64,000 nucleotides of DNA from Myxococcota bacterium (GTDB lineage Bacteria > Myxococcota_A > Bradymonadia > UBA4248 > JAVFAO01): positions 30 to 64,029 of the forward strand of contig JAVFAO010000002.1 in NCBI GenBank assembly GCA_034002465.1. The letters are read 5' to 3'. Made by a program: the position numbers and the translations under genes. The notes beneath the pieces were generated by a model. It saw only the letters and a list, made by a program, of their open reading frames with translations, was not told the origin of the DNA and searched no databases. Positions 51,028 through 64,000 of this stretch are shown here, one piece after another. Positions within the stretch are counted from its first letter, which is position 1. Every line of letters starts with the position of its first letter.

Positions 51028-52263
51028 CTAGAGCACCAAGACGCCCCACTCCACCGCCGTGAAGCCATCACGAACGAAGGGTGCAATGGGTGCTTCGCGC
51101 AGGACTGGTGGAGCGGGCAGGGGCCGAATCAGGAAGAGCGCGCGCATCAGACTCTGGGGGGCGGGTGAAATCTGCAGCGTCACCAGGGATGCGGCGTCTT
51201 GCGGATACACGGCATAGACGGCGGCAGGAGGCAGCACAGGCAGCCACCATGCAATGAAGTCGTCGATCTCTCTGCCCACGAAACCGAGCTCGCCGAGCAG
51301 TCTACGCAGCTCTGCTTCGAGCGCGCCGCCGTCCAAGACCCAACCCTCTTCGGTCTGGAATTGCTCGGGAAGGCTGGCCTCGTAGAAGAGATAGCCGTAG
51401 TCCTGCTCGATGATACCGTCGGGCTCGACCCACACGCTCCACCCATCACCGTATTCGGGCTCGGACAGAATCACCGCGCCTCCCTGGGGGAAGCCAAGCT
51501 GCACCGAGACCTGTGTGGCCTGCTCGGGGTAGAGGTAGAGGTTGGGCGCCGCCGCCTGCATGGGCTCGTTGAACACCAGATCTTGGTAGTCCATGCCCGC
51601 GGCGTTGACCAAAGCGAGCTGTATGGGCATGCCCTGATAGTCAAAGCGAACCACGAACTGTCCGAGCGGTAGCCCATCAACGGCGAAGCGCCCATTGGCG
51701 TCGGTGCTCAGAATGCCGACATAGCCGTTGGGCCCCTCGAGCCGCAGCTCCTGGTTGGGCACCACACAGTCGGCGAAGTAGGACTGAGTCCCAATGAGCA
51801 CGCCCGCGACCCCCTGCGTCGCCGGCGGCACCGCATCCAGATCGACGTCGAAGGGGACCGCCTTGCCCGCTCTGTAGATTTCGGTAAAGAAGCCCTCGGC
51901 ACGGGCATAGACATAGTAGCTCGGCGGGTCGGTGTAGGGCTGCTCTTCGAAGATGTCGAAGCTGACCGAGCCCTCGGTATCGAGGGTACGGGTCTCGAGC
52001 AGCGTTCCCCAACCATCGGAGTAAGCCTTGAGCTCGATCTGGGTGGCCACCCCCTCGAGCGGCTGCAAGAGCGCGAGGTCCTCCACATCGCTCTCATCGG
52101 CGCTGTCAGTATCTTCAATGGTTTCAGTCTGTTCTGTGGTATCAACCAGATCGACCAGATCGACCGCATCCGCGTCGGCATCGACCTTCTCTTCCTCCTC
52201 CTCGCAACTCCAGAGCAGGAAAGCACCCAACAACACGACCCAAGTCACCCTCGAGAATCTCAT
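51028..52263 (-). CDS. hypothetical lipoprotein with carboxypeptidase-regulatory-like beta domain
   Basis: ORF is over-extended through the 36-nt array. ATG 52263 follows AGGAGG. MRFSRVTWVVLLGAFLLWSC lipobox. GILSTDANGRFAVDGLPLGQFVVRF is CarboxypepD_reg-like. Confidence 0.65.
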   Translation of the reverse strand: MRFSRVTWVVLLGAFLLWSCEEEEEKVDADADAVDLVDLVDTTEQTETIEDTDSADESDVEDLALLQPLEGVATQIELKAYSDGWGTLLETRTLDTEGSVSFDIFEEQPYTDPPSYYVYARAEGFFTEIYRAGKAVPFDVDLDAVPPATQGVAGVLIGTQSYFADCVVPNQELRLEGPNGYVGILSTDANGRFAVDGLPLGQFVVRFDYQGMPIQLALVNAAGMDYQDLVFNEPMQAAAPNLYLYPEQATQVSVQLGFPQGGAVILSEPEYGDGWSVWVEPDGIIEQDYGYLFYEASLPEQFQTEEGWVLDGGALEAELRRLLGELGFVGREIDDFIAWWLPVLPPAAVYAVYPQDAASLVTLQISPAPQSLMRALFLIRPLPAPPVLREAPIAPFVRDGFTAVEWGVLVL

Positions 52264-52332
52264 CCGCTCCTCCTGTTTGGCACAGCTCGGGGGACTGCCC
52301 CGATGACTGGCTTTTCGTTGAGCTCGTCTACT

Positions 52333-52448
52333 CCAAGAACTTCGGGGAACAGGCCAAGCGCCCAATCGACAAGAACTTCGGGGAACAGGCCAAGCGCCCA
52401 ATCGACAAGAACTTCGGGGAACAGGCCAAGCGCCCAATCAACAAAAAG
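52333..52448 (+). repeat. 36-nt repeat family (B), tandem array of about 3.2 units, no spacers
   Basis: caagaacttcggggaacaggccaagcgcccaatcga appears three times nearly perfectly, then caatcaacaaaaag. Confidence 0.9.
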
Positions 52449-52642
52449 TCTGGCGGAAATGCAAGCAGGATTCAAGAGCCTTGGCGACAGCCCTTTGTTG
52501 CTGCACCTGCCGCTCTTCTACACGTGATGCACAAAGGACGTGCCACACTTGCCGCAGCAGAGCGCTGCTCCTTGGCGAAGCTCGGTGCGTGAAGCGCAAC
52601 AAGAGCTTGATTTCGGTCCGAGCCTTCGCTAGATTCCGCTCC

Positions 52643-52727
<85 letters not shown>

Positions 52728-52852
52728 TTCGTGATTCCGCTGCTGCTCAAGTGCTTGCGAGACAGCCTCGTTGCAGGCCTTGCCTGTCTCGAGCCACGAA
52801 TCGGCAGCACTCGACAAGCTCTGAGCTGCGCCAGCAAGCTCTCGAAATCAAA

Positions 52853-52901
52853 GGGATTCCAAAGGGCATTGCCCTTTGGCGAGGCGCGGAGCAGAGCCCG
52901 C
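52853..52901 (+). repeat. REP-A copy 6 (second hairpin diverged)
   Basis: gggattccaaagggcattgccctttggcgaggcgcggagcagagcccgc. Lies 126 nt after tRNA-Ser. Confidence 0.75.
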
Positions 52902-52985
52902 ATTCGTATTCCACCATACAGCCCTCACGAAGCTCTATCCAAGGCCGGCACTCGCGCGCTCGCGCTCCGGCCACCGAGACCAGCC

Positions 52986-53831
52986 ATGGCGAAGTATCCG
53001 GGACGGTGCCCAAGCAACCAGGCGCTCGACCTCTACTCTGGCTGCAGCTTTGGCTGCCTCTACTGCATTGGACATCGTCGCCACAGCGCTCAGCCTGCGC
53101 CCGCGACGACGAGGGCGACGCTGCTCGAGCAGCTCGACTGTGCTGGTCCAAACAGTGACCCCTACTACCTGTCACCCTGGACAGACGCCTACCAAGCGCT
53201 CGAGGCCCACCACTGCCTCACCCAAGCGGCGCTCGAGCGGCTCGCCAAACGTCGAGCGCCCTGCTTCGTCATCACCCGTAGCCCCCTGGTTGTGCGCGAC
53301 GCAGCCCACCTCGCCCATCGCGAAGACGCCTTCGTTGCCCTCTCCATCAACACCCTCGACCACAGCCTGACGCACCGCCTCGAGCCGACTGCGCCCTGCC
53401 CTGCCAGCCGCCTGGAAGCAGCCGTGCAGCTCCGAGAGGCTGGCGTGCGCGTCGTCTTCAAGCTCGACCCCATCCTCCCAGGCCTCACCGACGCAGACGC
53501 CCTCGAGACGCTGATGGACGCCATCGTCGCCGTGCGCCCAGTCGCCGTCACCGCAGACACGCTGCGCCTCACCGACGCCATCGCCACCCGCCTACGGCAG
53601 GGGCTCTCCCAAGAGGAGCTCGGCCAATTGAGCTCTTTCTACCCAGCCTTGACGAGCGAGCCCATTCACCCCCATCTGCCCTACCGCCAAGCGCTCTTCG
53701 AGCGCATTGCCGCTCGCTTTGAAGCTGAGCGCATTCGCGCCTGCTTCTGTCGCGCTTCACTGCCCCAGGCAGTGACGCCCTGGGATTGTCGGGGCGGCTT
53801 TTCCTGCGACGACCTCCCACACGGAGCCTGA
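52986..53831 (+). CDS. radical SAM protein (SplB/COG1533-like)
   Basis: ATG 52986 gives MAKYPGRCPSNQALDLYSGCSFGCLYCIG (CxxxCxxC). 281 aa. TIM-barrel-like alternating pattern. Confidence 0.75.
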   Translation: MAKYPGRCPSNQALDLYSGCSFGCLYCIGHRRHSAQPAPATTRATLLEQLDCAGPNSDPYYLSPWTDAYQALEAHHCLTQAALERLAKRRAPCFVITRSPLVVRDAAHLAHREDAFVALSINTLDHSLTHRLEPTAPCPASRLEAAVQLREAGVRVVFKLDPILPGLTDADALETLMDAIVAVRPVAVTADTLRLTDAIATRLRQGLSQEELGQLSSFYPALTSEPIHPHLPYRQALFERIAARFEAERIRACFCRASLPQAVTPWDCRGGFSCDDLPHGA

Positions 53832-53835
53832 GCCG

Positions 53836-54807
53836 ATGTTGCGCTCCCTTTACCTGATGCCGACACACCAATGTAACGGTGCCTGTAGCTACTGCTATCT
53901 GCCTGAACGAGAGGCCGACGCAGACGCCGCGCTCTTCGTCCGCGCCGTTTCGCTCTTCATCGCTCAGATGCAAGCCGCCGGCGTAGACGGTACGTCGCTG
54001 CAGCTCCGCTTCTCTGGCGGCGAGCCTTGTCTGCGCCCAGAACTGCTCGTGGAGCTGAGCACCCGTTTCCTTAGCGCACTGCCAGGCAGCGTCGTGCGCA
54101 TCAACTCGAACGGCACGCTCGTCGACGAAGCGCTCACGTCGCGGCTGCGCCCCTTCGCCCAGCGTGTGGCCTTCATCGTCTCGCTGGATGGCCCACCTGC
54201 CATCCACAACGCCCGCAGACGTCTCAAGAACGGCAACGACGCCCACGCCGCCGCTGTCCGCGGCATCGAGACGCTGCAACGCGACGGCATCCCTGTTTAC
54301 CTGAACGCCGTTCTGGACCGCTTCTCACTCGACGGGCTTGGCGAGCTGATGGACTTCATCGCCGACCGCTTCGGGATGCGCGACCTTGGTGTCTCGCTGC
54401 TGGATGCTCCGCAACACCCACTCTCAGCCGCTGACAAACTCGACCTGCTACGTCAGGCCTATGCTCTCGCCGCAGCGCGCGGGGTGCGCTTGGGCGGCCA
54501 CCACCGACTGCTGCTCGGAGAGCTCATCCCCGAGCTCTACTGCCGCGCAGGGCGTCAGACCATCGTCATCGGTGCCACTGGCGAAATGGCCGCCTGCCAA
54601 CGCTTTGTGGGCAAAGGCTACGGCCCCGTCAGACGCTTCGACGATGACGTCGACTTCCACACCGTCAAAGCACACACCTGCAGCTCGCGCTGCTATGCTG
54701 GCGACGTCCCCCAGCTCGCCCAGGGTCTCTACGAGCTGTACCAACAACACTACCCCGAATACTGCATGGTGAACGCGCTCGATCGCGTTCTTTTCGGCGT
54801 CATCTGA
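53836..54807 (+). CDS. radical SAM protein with SPASM/twitch-like Cys-containing C-terminal region
   Basis: Starts 4 nt after the upstream stop. MLRSLYLMPTHQCNGACSYCYLPE (CxxxCxxC), FSGGEPCL. C-terminal Cys cluster (YCRAG...AACQRF...CSSRCY). Confidence 0.75.
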   Translation: MLRSLYLMPTHQCNGACSYCYLPEREADADAALFVRAVSLFIAQMQAAGVDGTSLQLRFSGGEPCLRPELLVELSTRFLSALPGSVVRINSNGTLVDEALTSRLRPFAQRVAFIVSLDGPPAIHNARRRLKNGNDAHAAAVRGIETLQRDGIPVYLNAVLDRFSLDGLGELMDFIADRFGMRDLGVSLLDAPQHPLSAADKLDLLRQAYALAAARGVRLGGHHRLLLGELIPELYCRAGRQTIVIGATGEMAACQRFVGKGYGPVRRFDDDVDFHTVKAHTCSSRCYAGDVPQLAQGLYELYQQHYPEYCMVNALDRVLFGVI

Positions 54808-54827
54808 GGCGCTGACGAGGTGTTCCA

Positions 54828-56351
54828 ATGAAAGTGAGCGAAGGGCACGCATCCTCTCGACATTCCGGAGGAATTGTCGCTGGCGCGAGGTCGGTGCCCG
54901 AGAGCGAGCGAATGCAATCGAAAGGCGAGCTCTCGGGGCAGCGCGTGCTGGTGATGGGCCTGGGTATCAAAGACGGCGGAGTGGGCGCGACGCTCTTTGC
55001 AGCAAACCGGGGGGCCTCGGTCACCGTGACAGACCTGCGTGGCCCCGAGGCGCTCGCAGACTCCCTCGCCGAGCTGGCACCGCTCGAGCTCCAACTGCGT
55101 CTCGGTGGCCACGACGAGGAGGACTTCCGAAACGCAGACCTGGTCATCCGCAACGAGACCATCCGCCGCGACAACCACTTCCTCCGCATCGCCGCCGCGC
55201 ACGGCGCTCGCATCGAGAGCCCAATCAGCCTGTTCATGGCCGAATACGACAGGCCTTTCCTCGGCGTCACAGGAACCAAGGGCAAGAGCTTCACGACGCA
55301 GCTCCTTCAACACCTCATCGCCGCCTCGGGTGAACGGGCCGTGGCCGCTGGAAACAACTGCGTCTCGCCGCTGCGCTGGCTCGACGCGTCCTCGACGACC
55401 CTGGTGCTCGAGCTGTCGGCCCAACAACTGGCTGAAGCCGCAGCGCACCGCCGCTCACCCCATATCGCCTGCTGGCTCAACTTCTTCGAGGACCACCTCG
55501 ACAGCTATGCGTCCATGGCCGCCTACCATGCCGACAAAGCCGTGATTGCCCGCTTCCAGAGCACCTCGGACGTGCTCGTGCTGCCTTTCGGCAAGCCGAC
55601 CTTCGCGCAGCTCGATTCGCCAGCCCAACGCAGATACTTCGCGCTCTCCGAGCCGCCTGGCGTCGATGGCGTGTTTCTCGCCGACGGCGCCATCACCCTC
55701 GTCGTCGATGGACGCCGCACTGCAGTACTTCCGCTTCGCGAGCTTCCTCCCACGCTACGCGTACCACACCACCTCGAGCTCGCCCTTGCCGCTGTCGCCT
55801 GCGCCCACGCGCACGGCGTCAGCCCAACCGCAATTGCCACTGGGCTGAAGAGCTTCCCAGGCCTGCCGCATCGCTTCGAACACGTCGCCAGCTCCCGCGG
55901 AATCAGCTTCATCAACGATTCGGCGGCGAGCACCCCCGAGTCGGTGGAGCTCGCCCTACGGGCCATTGCCGCCGATGAAGGTCACGCGCTGTCATTCGCG
56001 GGCCCCATCGCCCTGATTGTCGGTGGTGGTGGCGACAAGAAGCTCTGCTACACGCAGCTCGCGCAGAGCATCTGCGAGCGCGTGGCACAGCTCATCCTGT
56101 TCGAGGACGATCCCATCGCCGCCCTTCTGCGCCCATTGCTGGCAGACTTTCGCGGGCCTATCTCGACGGTGCGCTGCATGCGGGAGGCGGTTGCCGAAGG
56201 TCGGCGCGCGCTCGAAACCAGTGGCGGCGGAACGCTACTCCTGTCGCCCGGCTGCTGCGGCTGGCCTCGCTTTCCGGACATGTTCGTGCGTGGTCGCGTC
56301 TTTTGCGAGGCCGTCCGCGAAGGCTTGACCTTGACCCAAGGAACGCCATGA
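54828..56351 (+). CDS. Mur ligase family protein, MurD-like (UDP-MurNAc-L-Ala:D-Glu ligase paralogue or orthologue)
   Basis: GQRVLVMGLGIKDGGVG Rossmann motif, GVTGTKGKSFTT P-loop, NFFEDHLD, PHRFEHV, FINDSAASTPES, LIVGGGGDKK. ATG 54828 follows GAGGTG. The alternative ATG 54912 (MQSKGELSGQRV) lies inside a dispersed 19-nt motif. Confidence 0.8.
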   Translation: MKVSEGHASSRHSGGIVAGARSVPESERMQSKGELSGQRVLVMGLGIKDGGVGATLFAANRGASVTVTDLRGPEALADSLAELAPLELQLRLGGHDEEDFRNADLVIRNETIRRDNHFLRIAAAHGARIESPISLFMAEYDRPFLGVTGTKGKSFTTQLLQHLIAASGERAVAAGNNCVSPLRWLDASSTTLVLELSAQQLAEAAAHRRSPHIACWLNFFEDHLDSYASMAAYHADKAVIARFQSTSDVLVLPFGKPTFAQLDSPAQRRYFALSEPPGVDGVFLADGAITLVVDGRRTAVLPLRELPPTLRVPHHLELALAAVACAHAHGVSPTAIATGLKSFPGLPHRFEHVASSRGISFINDSAASTPESVELALRAIAADEGHALSFAGPIALIVGGGGDKKLCYTQLAQSICERVAQLILFEDDPIAALLRPLLADFRGPISTVRCMREAVAEGRRALETSGGGTLLLSPGCCGWPRFPDMFVRGRVFCEAVREGLTLTQGTP

Positions 56352-56950
56352 TCCTCCGCGCACTCGACCTGCTCGGTGCCAGCGCTGGCCTGGCCGTTGG
56401 CTGGCCGCTGCTGCTGGCCTCGTCAGTGATTTCAGCCGTCGGCGTGGGCTTTCCGCCATGGTACGCATCCCGACGCGTTGGCCAGGGCGGCCGGGAGTAC
56501 CTCCACGTCAAAATCAAGACCATGAGACCCGGTCGCTCTGTCGGGCGAGTCTTCTTCGAACAACACCGAATCAACACCGTTGGTCGGATGCTGCGCCGCT
56601 ATCACCTCGACGAGTTGCCCGAGCTGGTGCACATTTTGCGCGGCCAAATGAGCCTGGTCGGACCACGACCGCTGCCGCGAGAGCTGCTCGCAGGCCTCGA
56701 CACCACAGTGCGCGAGTCGGTCCGCCCCGGCTGGACCGGCCCAGCACAGCTCCACCTGTTGCGCCATGGCAAGCTCGACAAGCACACACAGCTCGCGCTC
56801 GACAACGCCTACGTGGCCGAGCGCTGTCTCGCCCTGAACCTGCGCATCCTTGCCCAAACCCTGGCGGCGGCGCTGTACGCCAAGCCTCTCGACCTGCGCC
56901 CCGACGCGACAGCCGCTCGCCGACGCTTCGGTGAGGGCAATCAAAAGTGA
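56348..56950 (+). CDS. small bacterial sugar transferase (PglC/WbaP C-terminal type phosphoglycosyl transferase)
   Basis: ATG 56348 overlaps the upstream stop (ATGA). One N-terminal hydrophobic helix. RRVGQGGREYLHVKIKTMRPG and DELPELVHILRGQMSLVGPRPLP are Bac_transf hallmarks. Confidence 0.8.
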   Translation: MILRALDLLGASAGLAVGWPLLLASSVISAVGVGFPPWYASRRVGQGGREYLHVKIKTMRPGRSVGRVFFEQHRINTVGRMLRRYHLDELPELVHILRGQMSLVGPRPLPRELLAGLDTTVRESVRPGWTGPAQLHLLRHGKLDKHTQLALDNAYVAERCLALNLRILAQTLAAALYAKPLDLRPDATAARRRFGEGNQK

Positions 56951-58413
56951 GAGCAGCGCTGCGAGGGTCTGGCGAACGAATGTCGATCACAACGCTGCAC
57001 AGTTTGCTCGCCCGCCACGAACACCAGGCAGTGGTCCGCCGCCTCAGCCCTGCGCGCAGCGACCGCGAGCTTGAGCTGCTGGCACACGCCCTACGCAAGC
57101 TAGGCGAGGACGACGAAGCAGCACGGCTCATCGAGGCTCGGCTGGCGACGGGGCTGGCGAGTCATCCGCGCTCGCTGCGCTTGTTGGCGCGCATCCGCTG
57201 TGCCCGCAAAGACTACGACGGCGCCTGCGCGCTGTTCCGGCTCGCTTTGCAGGCCCGCCCCGAGCAGAGCTGGTATCGGCTGGCGATGGGCGATGTCTAT
57301 CGCTTCCATGCCGACGAACCCGAGCGCGCGCTCGCCATCTACCGCGCGGCGCTTCCAGCCCCAGCGCAGCTCAGGGGCGACAAGGAGCAGACCGACCGCT
57401 ATCTTCTGCGGCGGATAAGCCACATCCTCGATGAGCTCGACCGCCCCGAGGAGGCCATTGCGGCCTTCGAAGCCTTCCTCCGCCTCGCCCCGGCCAAGTT
57501 CTACGAATCCGACTGGGCCAGGCTGGGCCGCTGCTACGAGCGAATCGGCCAACTCGACCGCGCTCTCGCGCTCTGGCTGCAGGGCACGACCAAGCGGCGC
57601 GGCACCAAATGCCTGCGCGAGCTGGAGCGTGCAGCACCGGAGCTTGCGGCGACGGTGCTGCTGCCAGAGGCGCCGAAGGCACCGCCTGAGGCCCTGCGCA
57701 TCCCCGTGAAGACCCGCCTCTTGACTGAGGAGGACGAAGCCCCGAAGGTCATCGCCGAGGCCGTCGCAGGGGTGGCGCGGGCGGGTGATGTGCTGACCTT
57801 CGCCTCGGCCCCCGCAGCCATCACCGAGGGACGCGCGGTCTCGGCAGAGTGTATCGACGCTGGGCTGCTCGCCCGCTTCCTCAAGCGCTACGTGAAGAAG
57901 CCTGCCTACAACCCCCACCAGTCAGACGCCCCGCTGGCCAGCGCCGTCTCGTTTCAGCTTGCCATCGAGCTCGCTGGCGCGCCGAGGATTGTGGCCGCCG
58001 CCGCCGCCGGGGCAGCCGGCAAGCTGGTGGGCCAGAAGGGCTGGTTCTACACCGTCGCTGGCGACACCATCCGCATGATCGACGGTCTCTGCGGCGCGCT
58101 CGCGCCCTACGACTTCTGCGTCACGCCTGGTCCCTACGACGCCGACTGCCTGGCTGAGCTCATCTGCGAGGCAACGGGGCATCAGGCCGCGATCGTCGAC
58201 GCCCACGACCTGGGTCTCGCCTGGGTGGTCGGCGCCAGCGCAGGTGTCGACCGCGCCCAAGTCGCGAGCTTCATGGTCGACAACCCCGCCGGCAACGAGG
58301 ACAACCAGACGCCGATCATTCTTCTCAGGGATGCGGGCGCTGCGGCGGGTTCGGAGGCAGGCTTGCCTGGAAGCCCTTCGATACGAAAAAGAGAAGGGAT
58401 TCCAAAGGGCTAG
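56947..58413 (+). CDS. TPR-repeat protein fused to an F420-0:gamma-glutamyl ligase (CofE)-like domain
   Basis: GTG 56947 overlaps the upstream stop (GTGA); alternative ATG 56980. The N-terminal ~230 aa are TPR-like. The C-terminal DVLTFASAPAAITEGRAV ... VDNPAGNEDNQTPIILLR resembles the PF01996 family (from memory). The stop codon lies inside REP-A copy 7. Confidence 0.65.
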   Translation: MRAALRGSGERMSITTLHSLLARHEHQAVVRRLSPARSDRELELLAHALRKLGEDDEAARLIEARLATGLASHPRSLRLLARIRCARKDYDGACALFRLALQARPEQSWYRLAMGDVYRFHADEPERALAIYRAALPAPAQLRGDKEQTDRYLLRRISHILDELDRPEEAIAAFEAFLRLAPAKFYESDWARLGRCYERIGQLDRALALWLQGTTKRRGTKCLRELERAAPELAATVLLPEAPKAPPEALRIPVKTRLLTEEDEAPKVIAEAVAGVARAGDVLTFASAPAAITEGRAVSAECIDAGLLARFLKRYVKKPAYNPHQSDAPLASAVSFQLAIELAGAPRIVAAAAAGAAGKLVGQKGWFYTVAGDTIRMIDGLCGALAPYDFCVTPGPYDADCLAELICEATGHQAAIVDAHDLGLAWVVGASAGVDRAQVASFMVDNPAGNEDNQTPIILLRDAGAAAGSEAGLPGSPSIRKREGIPKG

Positions 58414-58444
58414 CCCTTTGGCGGGGTGTGGGGCGGCGCCCCAC
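58396..58444 (+). repeat. REP-A copy 7
   Basis: gggattccaaagggctagccctttggcggggtgtggggcggcgccccac. The TAG in the first loop terminates the upstream ORF. Confidence 0.85.
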
Positions 58445-60702: not shown

Positions 60703-62628
60703 TCAAACATCCAAGGTGGACACGTCCGCCGTATACTGGGTGATCATCCGCTGTCGGGGCTCACTGTCCTTGCCCATCAGCTCGCTGAAGACCACCTCAG
60801 TCTCGACACTCTCTTCATCGGCAATCGCCACGCGCAACAAACGACGGGTCCGCGGATCCAAAGTGGTCTCGAACAAGGTCGCTGGAGGCATCTCGCCTAA
60901 GCCCTTGAATCGGGTGAGCTTGACGTTCTCGCGCGAGCGGCGGTGACGCTTGATGATGCGCTTCTGGTCCGCCTCGTCCAGCGCCCAGTAGGTGTGCTTG
61001 CCAATGTCCACGCGAAACAAAGGCGGCTGCGCCAAATAGACATGCCCCTTCTCGATCAAGGGCCGCAAAAAACGATAAAAGAAGGTCAACAACAAGGTCG
61101 AGATGTGGTGCCCATCGCTGTCGGCATCCATCAACAAGACCACCTTATGATAGCGCAGACGCGATAGGTCGAACTTGTCCCCCATGCCACAACCCAAGGC
61201 CGAGACAATGTCCCCAAGCTCCTTGTTGCTCGCGATCTTCGAAAAAGTCGCCTGCTCAGAGTTCAGTACCTTTCCCCGCAAGGGCAAGATCGCCTGTATT
61301 CTACGATCTCTACCTTGCTTTGCAGAGCCACCTGCGGAGTCGCCCTCGACGATGAAGAGCTCACAGTCGGCGGGCGTATGCGAAGAACAATCAGCGAGCT
61401 TTCCAGGAAGGTTGAGGCGCTGGTGGCTCGACGCAGGCCGACGCGCGCTCTGCTCCGCTGCCCGCGATGCCTGGCGGGCGCGAGCGGCTTGTAAGACGCG
61501 CTGACTGATGGCCTGTCCAATGGTGGGATGCGTATTCAAGAAGCTCTCGAGCTCATTGCGAACTGACGAGGCAACCCATGAGCGCAGCCAGGGGTTGTTC
61601 AAACGCTCCTTGGTCTGTCCTTGAAATTGTGGGTCCGGCATGAACACGCTGATGAGCGCCAACAAACCCTCTCGCATGTCTTCCGGCGTCACCGTCAGGT
61701 TCCGCGGCACCGCGTTGTGGGTCGTCAAATAGGCCTGCAACGAGCGCATGATGCCCTCGCGCAGACCCTGCTCATGGGTGCCGCCGTCCGCGGTTGGGAT
61801 GGCGTTCACAAAACTGCGCACCCGCTCTTTGGTCCCCTCTGTCCAAACGAAAACCACGTCGAGTCGGGTGTTGCTGCTCTCCTCGCGCGTACGCAATACG
61901 AAAGGCTCGGCGTGGATCTTTCCATTGCCTGCTTGGCTCAAGGTCGCATCGAGCATGTCGACAATGCCACCGGCGAAGCAAAACGAGGCCTTGCTCTTCG
62001 ACTGCTCGTCGACGAACTCGATGTTCAGCCCATCGATCAGGTAGGCCTTCGCCTCAAGCCATTCGTGAATACGTCCAGAGTCGAAGCGGATATCTTCGAA
62101 GATCTGCTCGTCGGGGCGAAAGAAGACCTGCGTCCCATGTCCTCGGCGCTCTGCGACACGCGCTACCGAAGCCAAGGGTACGCCTCGCACATAGTTCTGC
62201 TCGAAGACCCCACCCTCTCGGGTCACGGTCACGCACAGGCGCGAAGAGAGCGCGTTGACCACACTCGCCCCCACGCCGTGCAAACCACCGCTGGTGTGAT
62301 AGCTGTTCTGATCGAACTTGGCCCCAGCGTGCAGCTTCGTGAAGACCACCTCCAAGACGCTGCGCTTCTCGGTCGGATGCTCATCGACAGGGATACCGCG
62401 ACCGTCATCTCGCACGGTCACGCTCTGTCCATCTTGATGCAGTGTGACCCAGATACGCTTGGCGAAACCGTTCATCGCCTCGTCGACTGCATTGTCCACC
62501 AGCTCCCAAAGCAAGTGATGAAGCCCATCCTTGCCCGTTCCGCCAATGTACATGCCGGGGCGCAAGCGAACCGGTTCAAGCCCCTCCAAGACCTGAATAT
62601 CTTTGGCAGAATAGCTGGACTCACTCAT
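60703..62628 (-). CDS. parE: type IIA DNA topoisomerase subunit B (ParE-like; a GyrB paralogue is not excluded)
   Basis: ATG 62628 gives MSESSYSAKDIQVLEGLEPVRLRPGMYIGGT. HHLLWELVDNAVDE, GGLHGVG, the Toprim motif LFIVEGDSAGGSAKQGRDR, and PLRGKVLN. The 641-aa length and coupling to an A subunit favour topo IV. Confidence 0.85.
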   Translation of the reverse strand: MSESSYSAKDIQVLEGLEPVRLRPGMYIGGTGKDGLHHLLWELVDNAVDEAMNGFAKRIWVTLHQDGQSVTVRDDGRGIPVDEHPTEKRSVLEVVFTKLHAGAKFDQNSYHTSGGLHGVGASVVNALSSRLCVTVTREGGVFEQNYVRGVPLASVARVAERRGHGTQVFFRPDEQIFEDIRFDSGRIHEWLEAKAYLIDGLNIEFVDEQSKSKASFCFAGGIVDMLDATLSQAGNGKIHAEPFVLRTREESSNTRLDVVFVWTEGTKERVRSFVNAIPTADGGTHEQGLREGIMRSLQAYLTTHNAVPRNLTVTPEDMREGLLALISVFMPDPQFQGQTKERLNNPWLRSWVASSVRNELESFLNTHPTIGQAISQRVLQAARARQASRAAEQSARRPASSHQRLNLPGKLADCSSHTPADCELFIVEGDSAGGSAKQGRDRRIQAILPLRGKVLNSEQATFSKIASNKELGDIVSALGCGMGDKFDLSRLRYHKVVLLMDADSDGHHISTLLLTFFYRFLRPLIEKGHVYLAQPPLFRVDIGKHTYWALDEADQKRIIKRHRRSRENVKLTRFKGLGEMPPATLFETTLDPRTRRLLRVAIADEESVETEVVFSELMGKDSEPRQRMITQYTADVSTLDV

Positions 62629-64000
62629 CCTGCGACTCCCTGTCTGCATCACTGTCAGCATCACTGTCTGCGCTCGATTGGCGCTTCACCGCAACGAAGC
62701 GCCCCAAGGCGAAGGGGAGCTCGAGCTCGTCTCCACGCTCTTCCTCATCGTGTGTGGTCGCCTGCGGCGCCGGTCTGGCATCGGACTTCTCGCTCTTTTC
62801 CGCAGCAGGCGGTTCGAGTACGACCACCTTCGTCGACACTTTGACCACTTTGCCTCTGGGCTCGATGACTTTGCCCTTCCCCCCTCGACCGATGGGAGGA
62901 TATCGGCGCGCCGTCACCATCACGTTTCGCCCGCGCTGCGTGTTCACCTCGAAGCCATCGCTCGCGTCCCGAGCCAGACACAAGGTATGAACCACATCCT
63001 TGCCCTCGAGCTGCACGGCACGCACCCCTCGGCCTGCGCTCTTGAGCACCGGCACCTCCTCCACCACGAAGCAAAGCGCCCTCGCGTTCTCTGTTGCCAG
63101 ACACACGTACTCACCACCGCCAGACACAAAGACCGAGAGCACCCGATCATCGCCAGTCAGGCGCATATAGGTGCGCCCATTCACCGTCGACGGCGCTTCA
63201 AAGGCCTGCAACGGCAAACGCAGAACCATGCCGCGCTTGCTCATGGCAAGCAGACAATGGGAGGGCTTCTCCGATGCATCAAGCTCTTCGTCGGATTCCG
63301 GCTCAAAGGGTAGTTGGTTCTTTGGAATACTGACACATTCCACACAGGGCGGCAAACTGCGCTCGTCGGAGACCGCTGCCCCCACGATGCGCTCCCCATC
63401 CTCGAACTCGAAGCGGGCCTGCACCGGCTCGCCGTAGCCTGTGGTGGCGTTGACGGAATCAACGCGCATCGTATACGCTTTTCCGCGATCGGTGAAGAGA
63501 ATCAGGCTCTTTCGGGTAGAGGCCCACATGCTCCAACCGACGCTGTCTCCCTCGCGCACCCGAATCGCAGCGAGGTCGGTGTAGCTGCGCTGTCGCTTGA
63601 GCCATCCGTCACGGCTGACGATGACGTACACGTCTTCATCGATGATGAAGTCCTCAGCGCTATACTGGGCCTTGATATCCGGCCCGCCAAGGGTGGTGCG
63701 TCTTCCATCGGCGAAGCGTTTGGAGAGGTTGGAGAGCTCGCTGCGCACCAGCTTCCAGCGGCCGGGAGCATCGGCGAGTAGGGCCTCGAGCTGCTCGGCC
63801 TCGGCGCGCTTGCTGGCGAGGTCCGCGCGGATTTCTTCGATCTCGAGTTGAGCCAAGCGATAGAGGCGCGTGTCGAGGATGGCGTTGCTCTGGAGTACGA
63901 CGAGGACTAAGCGCACACGCAAACGCATACCCGCCACAGCCCGGACACTAGAAGCACGGATGAACGCTAACGCCACTACTATGGCGACGAAGAAACGCAC
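62621..64000 (-). CDS. parC: type IIA DNA topoisomerase subunit A, C-terminal part (ParC-like), 5' end outside the window
   Basis: AILDTRLYRLAQLEIEEI (GyrA/ParC coiled-coil motif), FADGRRTTLGG, then beta-pinwheel-like repeats and an acidic tail DSDADSDADRESQDE. The stop overlaps the subunit B start by 8 nt. Confidence 0.8.
   Translation of the reverse strand: MRFFVAIVVALAFIRASSVRAVAGMRLRVRLVLVVLQSNAILDTRLYRLAQLEIEEIRADLASKRAEAEQLEALLADAPGRWKLVRSELSNLSKRFADGRRTTLGGPDIKAQYSAEDFIIDEDVYVIVSRDGWLKRQRSYTDLAAIRVREGDSVGWSMWASTRKSLILFTDRGKAYTMRVDSVNATTGYGEPVQARFEFEDGERIVGAAVSDERSLPPCVECVSIPKNQLPFEPESDEELDASEKPSHCLLAMSKRGMVLRLPLQAFEAPSTVNGRTYMRLTGDDRVLSVFVSGGGEYVCLATENARALCFVVEEVPVLKSAGRGVRAVQLEGKDVVHTLCLARDASDGFEVNTQRGRNVMVTARRYPPIGRGGKGKVIEPRGKVVKVSTKVVVLEPPAAEKSEKSDARPAPQATTHDEEERGDELELPFALGRFVAVKRQSSADSDADSDADRESQDE

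Follow-up and report, generated by a model that had tools for sequence, protein, structure and literature searches.

Four adjoining genes of a Myxococcota bacterium, encoding two radical S-adenosylmethionine (SAM) enzymes, a MurD-like ligase and a small phosphoglycosyl transferase, constitute a rare operon that recurs in unrelated uncultured bacteria; the combination is undescribed in the literature searched, and its component families are known. The genes lie on a 64,000-nt stretch of DNA (hereafter the window; assembly GCA_034002465.1, contig JAVFAO010000002.1, positions 30 to 64,029 of the forward strand), for which a preliminary description, made from the sequence alone, had proposed a five-gene cassette that matched no nameable pathway. 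Open reading frame (ORF) calls confirmed five co-directional, tightly packed genes, all on the plus strand: G1, a radical-SAM protein with the fold of the spore photoproduct lyase (SPL)/PA0069/Rv2578c group (COG1533; 52986..53831, 281 aa); G2, a radical-SAM protein probably of the SPASM/twitch group (53836..54807, 323 aa); G3, an ATP-dependent amide ligase that is a paralogue of MurD (54828..56351, 507 aa; alternative start 54912); G4, a PglC-type monotopic phosphoglycosyl transferase of small size (56348..56950, 200 aa); and G5, which joins TPR repeats to a CofE-like domain (56947..58413; alternative start 56980). As had been anticipated, we found no pathway to match them: full-text literature searches gave no description of the G1–G4 combination, and NCBIfam holds no model specific to any of the cassette proteins.

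We consider it probable that G1–G4 work jointly and that G3, instead of being the housekeeping MurD, is a neofunctionalised paralogue. Our favoured reading of their function, to which we assign a probability of roughly 0.4, is that the four genes encode one pathway, branching from nucleotide-sugar or peptidoglycan-precursor metabolism, whose product is a lipid-linked sugar–aminoacyl unit; the lipid- or nucleotide-linked sugar–amino-acid conjugate that the preliminary description had guessed at stays the leading hypothesis.

Conservation of the four-gene unit

Look-ups of the closest relatives of G3, together with one metagenome scan, gathered 12 independent loci besides the window (L010, L013, L014, L015, L016, L017, L078, L097, L098, L099, L100 and the P0057 locus, the last known from gene calls only; L011 and L012 come from the same organism as L010 and were counted with it). 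Across these loci, which range in G+C content from 32% to 66%, the order G1-G2-G3-G4 recurred on a single strand, with neighbouring genes overlapping, abutting or set a few bases apart. G2 stood directly upstream of G3 in all 12 loci wherever the contig reaches, G1 was present in every locus with enough upstream sequence, and, among the other loci that allow a judgement, 11 carry a G4-type transferase (12 if the window is counted; in L099 the gene is truncated by the contig end). This synteny in 12 further loci bears out the view that these genes belong together functionally and are not chance neighbours. The proposed conservation of a five-gene set held for four of the genes and failed for the fifth, G5 being absent from all 12 of the other cassette loci. 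An all-against-all comparison of the flanking ORFs returned no other family in three or more loci, save antisense shadows of the cassette genes; the remaining families common to loci were one-off pairs or such shadows.

The metagenome scan used an alignment of the ligase clade to which G3 belongs (clade A, described below), and 78 of the 80 loci that it returned were not clade A, because its degenerate patterns also matched ordinary MurDs. Reused as a control set, these 78 MurD loci contained one G1-like gene (a weak match), no G2-like gene and one transferase (also weak), and two outgroup loci that were annotated (L018 and L020) proved to be classical MraY-MurD-FtsW-MurG(-MurC) clusters. None of the 13 clade-A loci had neighbours from the division and cell wall (dcw) cluster within flanks of up to 10 kb, several contigs ending sooner.

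The unit is rare. At E ≤ 1 × 10−30, only nine G1 representatives (clustered at 50% identity) were found among 1.84 billion proteins, set against 3,624 representatives of the wider superfamily at E ≤ 0.001. Source names were few (Candidatus Aegiribacteria, Candidatus Fermentibacteria, Spirochaetia and "Desulfuromonas sp. SDB"), and the named homologues in the cassette subfamilies were all labelled as metagenome-assembled genomes (MAGs), with no cultured isolate among them. Several cassette loci also encode proteins tagged for the type IX secretion system (T9SS).

A divergent MurD paralogue

By family models, G3 is close to MurD: it scored 281 bits against the murD model TIGR01087 (cut-off 212), passed the cut-offs for Mur_ligase_M (PF08245) and Mur_ligase_C (PF02875), fell just under the 27-bit cut-off for MurD-like_N (PF21799; 25.5 bits) and matched solved MurDs at about 134 bits. 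Its best 63 database matches (37–52% identical) share the motifs GLGTKDGG, GNNCVSPL, NDSAATTPxS and SPGCSGAPFF (clade A); from match 64 on, the motifs change to GLGxHGGG, HNxxN and SPGCASFG (clade B), and some of these later matches bear names that place them as MurDs of Chloroflexi, Planctomycetes and Thermomicrobiales. In 50 of 50 neighbour-joining bootstraps the clades separated, with a mean identity of 51% within groups and 34% between them.

Invariant or nearly so among 49 clade-A members, and aligned to the motifs of solved MurD for catalysis and for binding ATP and uridine diphosphate (UDP)-N-acetylmuramic acid (MurNAc)-Ala, were the UDP-binding Asp (D41, in the Rossmann loop), NPG, GN, LELSSWQL, the P-loop GTKGKS, the catalytic DH, the Lys of DK (which aligns with the carbamylated lysine of MurD and is presumed to be carbamylated too), PHRF and the Lys after GGGG. 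Replaced were HNxxNALAA, which holds the two-Asn adenine motif (xHLxL in clade A), DSKATN (now DSAATTPxS) and the D-glutamate (D-Glu) loop SPACAS(L)D (now SPGCSGAP). We read this pattern of motifs as a conserved UDP-sugar-carboxylate side and a changed incoming-amine side. The preliminary description had credited G3 with all MurD hallmarks, which is true of the UDP, P-loop, His and Lys motifs and untrue of HNxxN, of the lysine in DSKATN and of the loop SPACAS(L)D.

Compared with the MurD of dcw clusters (TIGR01087), G3 is thus alike in its three-domain architecture, P-loop, UDP-binding Asp and substrate and catalytic motifs, but belongs to a separate clade and differs in context. At the loci examined, the clade-A ligase always adjoins the two radical-SAM genes and is in no case part of a dcw cluster, whereas clade-B ligases within dcw clusters keep both HNxxN and the SPGCASFG loop. 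In the window, as had been noted earlier for mraY, ftsW and murG, no dcw or other cell-wall gene was found in the approximately 6 kb around the block, and G3 is accordingly a MurD relative outside the dcw cluster, as had been claimed.

A partial parallel is provided by MurD2 and MurL of Xanthomonas, where a MurD paralogue with altered amino-acid recognition likewise stands beside a possible residue-modifying enzyme (PMC8788868). In MurD, the loop residues Ala414 and Leu416 lie near D-Glu, and the DSKATN lysine (K319) is tied to glutamate stereospecificity, and the Escherichia coli K319T variant accepts L-Glu; MurD2 has Glu197 and Arg358 where MurD has Asp182 and Lys348 (PMC8788868). A comparable housekeeping route to the peptidoglycan dipeptide can be imagined here, in which G3 would be the cell's MurD, adding L-Glu or another L-amino acid to UDP-MurNAc-L-Ala, whereupon a radical-SAM enzyme would epimerise the residue to the D-form, replacing glutamate racemase. 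Such a route would account for a G3 score above the TIGR01087 equivalog cut-off, for the conserved UDP-MurNAc-Ala contact motifs, for the loss of the DSKATN lysine (given the behaviour of K319T) and for a locus (L016) with G1–G3 and no transferase, and radical-SAM enzymes that epimerise peptides are already known. We nonetheless judge it unlikely. The positions that define MurD2 are Asp (of DH) and Lys (after GGGG) in clade A, both invariant and both as in the D-Glu-adding MurD, and the clade lacks the MurD2 signature residues Glu197, Arg358, Pro433 and Phe435; the partners of G3 are radical-SAM enzymes and a phosphoglycosyl transferase and not MurL, no MurL-like neighbour being present, and an assignment of G3 as MurD2 was rejected. 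The route would also leave the dedicated PglC-type transferase (12 loci, window included) roleless, and it fits poorly with a family that is so rare (nine representatives of G1 among 1.84 billion proteins), has a patchy spread over phyla and is never part of a dcw cluster, and that has lost a two-Asn adenine motif which even divergent dcw MurDs keep.

One MurD of clade-B type (motif NDSAATMPDA) was also seen outside a dcw cluster, at 9959-11368 of L024, between TyrRS/TrpRS-like and UDP-sugar pyrophosphorylase-like genes.

Two radical-SAM enzymes

The identification of two radical-SAM enzymes stood, with both proteins above the 29.5-bit cut-off of PF04055 (37.9 bits for G1, with the CX3CX2C cluster motif CSFGCLYC; 48.4 bits for G2, which also matches Fer4_12 and has the cluster motif CNGACSYC). 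G1 represents a cassette-specific subfamily, marked by CxxxCxxC, by YLSPWTDAYQ and, at the C terminus, by CRGG, within which G1-type scores are at least 174 bits and outside which they are at most 106 bits. Its best NCBIfam matches, the PA0069 and Rv2578c families, lie far below their cut-offs: the match to NF033668 has an E value of 1.2 × 10−27, yet is far under the cut-off, and the scores against the family hidden Markov models (HMMs) were 97 against a cut-off of 360 and, for the spore photoproduct lyase model TIGR04070, 17.6 against 400. In a Foldseek search with an AlphaFold2 model of G1 (mean predicted local distance difference test (pLDDT) score of 95), the top match was spore photoproduct lyase (4fhc/4fhf; TMq 0.67, 15% identity). 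Membership of the spore photoproduct lyase family was rejected, the family HMM score being far below the cut-off and the likeness one of fold only; G1 shares the fold and the CX3CX2C motif with SPL, PA0069 and Rv2578c, but is some 60 residues shorter, has its own conserved YLSPWTDAYQ and CRGG motifs and lies in a context that is not one of DNA repair.

For G2, the SPASM/twitch-like Cys cluster that had been proposed stays a candidate feature: no match to the Pfam SPASM domain (PF13186) was found, but three further Cys (C236, C254 and C286) are invariant in six orthologues, and a profile of the orthologues aligned with CteB (5wgg; E = 1.2 × 10−17 over residues 2–291), then with anSME and more weakly with SkfB, BlsE, MoaA, viperins and BtrN. 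The best NCBIfam matches of G2 are the peptide maturases GrrM/OscB, AmcB and PapB, all far below their cut-offs.

These relatives bear on two other readings of the operon. One would make it similar to the gene clusters of ribosomally synthesized and post-translationally modified peptides (RiPPs), the radical-SAM enzymes modifying a ribosomal peptide and the other two proteins ligating or glycosylating the product, as might be suggested by the RiPP maturases (GrrM/OscB, AmcB, PapB, CteB and SkfB) that are the best relatives of G2. This we consider very improbable, since all maturase scores among the family models are far under the cut-offs, no conserved ORF of 18–100 aa was found within 2 kb of the cassettes (eight loci), and neither an RRE/PqqD domain nor a protease or exporter was seen. 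The other would have the operon make a diffusible uridyl-sugar-peptide or nucleoside metabolite (for example, an antibiotic directed at MraY or Mur enzymes), with the transferase serving self-resistance or the priming of export. A MurD-like ligase combined with radical-SAM tailoring does resemble the logic of nucleoside antibiotics, G2 is weakly similar to BlsE, which is itself a radical-SAM enzyme and has a nucleoside sugar acid as substrate, and a rare, patchy distribution would be in keeping with such a metabolite. However, only four genes recur, with no transporter, regulator, nonribosomal peptide synthetase or polyketide synthase, or resistance gene conserved alongside them, the surroundings of the cassette are ordinary chromosomal genes, and G4 retains intact catalytic motifs typical of the initiation of envelope glycans, such that we hold this reading to be improbable, if somewhat less so than the RiPP-like one.

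A defence system was likewise rejected, as PADLOC gave only a generic radical-SAM match (G2 to pVip, 41.7 bits) and none for the other four proteins. Defence-like genes do occur near two cassettes, as single cases among the loci: a Gabija-like pair encoding a UvrD helicase and an OLD-family TOPRIM ATPase approximately 2.8 kb downstream of the cassette in L013 (8780-12935), and an AbiEi-like gene after the cassette in L017.

The phosphoglycosyl transferase and neighbouring glycan genes

The assignment of G4 as a PglC-type monotopic transferase was corroborated by a score of 126 bits against PF02397 (Bac_transf) and by an end-to-end alignment with PglC (8e37, residues 11–197; 4 × 10−18) in which the Asp-Glu dyads coincide. 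G4 carries this dyad in the motif LDELPEL, together with a GPRP motif and one N-terminal hydrophobic segment that starts at residue 13, and both the dyad (LDELP) and the PRP motif are conserved in all G4 orthologues. In its size, single membrane-associated helix, dyad and PRP motif, G4 is therefore similar to characterised-structure PglC types (PDB 8e37/8g1n); it differs from them in its partners, which are a Mur ligase and radical-SAM enzymes instead of genes for sugar-modifying dehydratases, aminotransferases, acetyltransferases and glycosyltransferases.

Genes of glycan type adjoin several of the cassettes. A protein of the EpsG-like type with 11 transmembrane segments is encoded directly upstream of G1 in L016 (6563-8050) and at the P0057 locus, a Wzy_C protein upstream of the cassette in L014 (1620-3476) and L098 (3032-4906), and a Wzx-like flippase (Polysacc_synt) upstream of it in L010 (5000-6517). 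These neighbours lend weak support to a lipid-linked glycan fate for the product. Among other accessory genes, a class-I SAM methyltransferase gene is inserted between G3 and G4 in L097 (5071-5820), and a weakly matching methyltransferase gene, not orthologous to it, follows G4 in L015 (12066-12764). A Peptidase_M6 gene adjoins the cassette in three related Fermentibacteria-like loci (L014, L098 and L097), being convergent and downstream of it in two, divergent and upstream in the third, with a weak match to the T9SS domain Por_Secre_tail in L097. All of these recurrent accessory genes (methyltransferases, Wzy_C, EpsG-like, Wzx-like and Peptidase_M6) were rejected as members of the unit, as they are not orthologous except between close genomes.

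A proposed pathway

Under our favoured reading of a pathway to a lipid-linked sugar–aminoacyl unit, G3 would first use ATP to activate a UDP-linked sugar acid (most likely UDP-MurNAc-L-Ala or a substrate of similar size) at its carboxylate and join to it an amine or amino acid, probably not the canonical D-Glu. G1 and G2 would then tailor the UDP-sugar–aminoacyl intermediate, or make its unusual component, by C–H chemistry, with epimerisation, oxidation and the formation of C–C or C–X bonds all conceivable. G4 would next move the phospho-sugar–aminoacyl unit onto polyprenyl phosphate, generating a lipid-linked building block of the envelope without MraY. Finally, a flippase, polymerase or ligase might be supplied by the non-conserved neighbours of some genomes (Wzx, Wzy_C or EpsG-like proteins) or by the housekeeping machinery. 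In the present genome, the appended G5 may add a further amide-linked residue or be functionally unrelated.

A more specific version, which we put forward only as a tentative possibility less probable than the general pathway, is that G1–G4 provide a hitherto unrecognised, MraY-independent entry into lipid-linked precursors of the cell wall. Anaerobic uncultured bacteria would thereby gain a second, chemically distinct unit, similar to lipid I, with which to decorate or remodel their envelope. In chemical terms, the neofunctionalised MurD and the radical-SAM pair would build a non-canonical UDP-MurNAc-peptide, or another UDP-sugar–amino acid, and the PglC-type enzyme would load it onto undecaprenyl phosphate.

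Several points weigh against the favoured pathway. We infer its substrate and product, the sequence of its steps and where the product ends up, and the function of a radical-SAM enzyme is not readable from its sequence; the nearest fold to G1 acts on DNA, and the nearest solved and curated relatives of G2 are peptide maturases. Clade-B ligases located in dcw clusters also have the GLGxxxGG insertion and also lack the DSKATN lysine, so neither of these changes is diagnostic of a new function, and G3 may yet have a housekeeping role, our evidence being drawn from individual loci. The small transferase, found downstream of G3 in all other loci, is missing from L016, and the neighbours of glycan type, which the window lacks, show no orthology from locus to locus.

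To our knowledge, Mur ligases that function outside the synthesis of peptidoglycan, folate, F430, cyanophycin and poly-gamma-glutamate are rare, and we know of no radical-SAM enzyme that acts on the product of a Mur ligase and of no monotopic phosphoglycosyl transferase that accepts aminoacylated nucleotide sugars. If the pathway is as proposed, an operon that unites these three activities would establish new chemistry where the synthesis of peptidoglycan precursors meets that of glycoconjugates, and would provide a function for one branch of COG1533, the uncharacterised SplB-like family of radical-SAM proteins. A further consequence would be that automatic "MurD" labels in Fermentibacterota/Aegiribacteria, Spirochaetia and related MAGs may be wrong.

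G5, a lineage-specific addition

The fusion of TPR repeats to a CofE-like domain that had been proposed for G5 was confirmed in its TPR part (residues ~1–235, by Pfam), and the CofE-like part (~250–465) gained support at the level of the family and not from G5 alone. G5 itself scored 16 bits against PF01996 (threshold 25; E = 0.009), over profile positions 2–72 of 218, whereas all 32 of the 32 family members matched PF01996 at E ≤ 0.01 (best 5 × 10−9); a profile of the C-terminal domain matched CofE, and no other family, in the PDB (E = 0.13), and among the 50 Foldseek matches listed for an AlphaFold2 model of full-length G5 (pLDDT 79) there were only TPR matches. Because the score of G5 itself is below threshold, the CofE-like label denotes remote homology and not family membership. 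With CofE/FbiB (PF01996; PDB 2g9i, 2phn and 7uld), G5 shares the N-terminal motif DD...GD-hhh-hsE/SKhhS-x-xEGR, but the similarity is remote and the domain is fused to TPR repeats. The earlier idea of two glutamate-adding ligases is correspondingly weakened, the D-Glu loop of the MurD paralogue being remodelled and G5 being only a remote relative of CofE.

Beyond its absence from the other cassette loci, G5 has homologues in unrelated operons, and it was rejected as a member of the cassette. Full-length homologues (45–49% identical) occur in Caldisericia (L001–L003; for example, L003 8816-15191), where they lie between genes for a DUF4388 protein and a Ras-like GTPase on one side and TldD/PmbA and alanine racemase genes on the other, and the C-terminal domain stands alone in picocyanobacteria (marine Synechococcus, Prochlorococcaceae) and in one actinobacterium. 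A scan of genome collections with G5 found no homologue near a MurD or transferase gene, and no F420 genes were seen near any locus examined. We regard G5 as a lineage-specific addition, since its homologues occur in unrelated operons; its link to G1–G4 is adjacency in this genome only.

Junctions, repeats and flanking genes in the window

Of the junctions from which the preliminary description proposed translational coupling of the five genes, two were confirmed (the 4-nt spacing of G1 and G2 and the ATGA overlap of G3 and G4 at 56348), and the other two (G2/G3 and G4/G5) hinge on the choice of start codon. Database gene calls start G3 at ATG 54912 (P0001, 479 aa) and G5 at ATG 56980 (P0128, 477 aa), whereas the better Shine-Dalgarno matches precede the starts chosen in the preliminary description (GAGG 7 nt upstream for G3; GAGGG 9 nt upstream for G5). 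Within the G1–G5 block, terminator-like sites were not found above chance expectation. Rfam matched no riboswitch or leader RNA in six cassette loci and, in the window, gave the tRNA only.

That tRNA, tRNA-Ser(UGA) (52642..52728, plus strand; ARAGORN, with an Rfam tRNA score of 59.7 bits), was correctly placed upstream of the block and is the sole tRNA that ARAGORN found in the window; it lies outside the conserved cassette, 257 nt from the start of G1 (and not 259 nt, as first given). Hairpins of the repetitive extragenic palindromic (REP) type stand near both ends of the block in the same, plus orientation, as had been observed: one, GGATTCCAAAGGGC-N3-GCCCTTTGGCG, in the spacer between the tRNA and G1 (52854..52881), and the other overlapping the 3' end of G5 (58397..58423). 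In the second, the G5 stop codon TAG (58411-58413) sits in the hairpin loop, and the repeat supplies the last eight codons (KREGIPKG) and the stop; G5 in the window has a C-terminal tail of approximately 20 aa without counterpart in its homologues, which suggests that the 3' end of the gene was remodelled by REP insertion.

From this tRNA and the two hairpins it might be supposed that the five genes are a mobile cassette inserted at tRNA-Ser and delimited by REPs, the more so as the G+C content of G1–G4 (0.656) and of G5 (0.684) is slightly above that of the window (0.631). This, too, seems highly improbable. The REP family (GGATTCCAAAGGGC-N2-3-GCCCTTTGGCG) has seven copies dispersed over both strands of the window (at 2516, 8884, 33948, 45161, 50946, 52854 and 58397; none expected by chance), because of which two of them do not delimit the cassette. 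The 3' end of tRNA-Ser has no second copy in the window, the ten flanking ORFs tested (four with any domain match) gave no Pfam match to an integrase, neither the gene calls nor the Rfam matches for the other cassette loci included a tRNA, and G5 is outside the conserved set. With no integrase detected, no repeat of the tRNA end and G+C content only slightly raised, the signature of a tRNA island is lacking; the hint of a cassette-like unit drawn from the REP bracket and the tRNA was not upheld, and of the native G+C content and absent integrase noted earlier, the second agrees with our search and the first needs the qualification of a slight rise.

The genes that flank the block encode bPH_2, MORN and hypothetical secreted proteins, along with a gyrB/gyrA-like pair. 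Directly upstream of tRNA-Ser, between it and a divergent ORF (51028-52437), a 36-nt tandem repeat spans 52334-52462 in three copies, perfect save for the third (84% identical). The GyrB/ParE-like and GyrA/ParC-like genes occupy 60703-64000 on the minus strand, approximately 2–4 kb downstream of the cassette, and a gyrA-like gene is likewise present in L016, 2.3 kb downstream of the cassette there.

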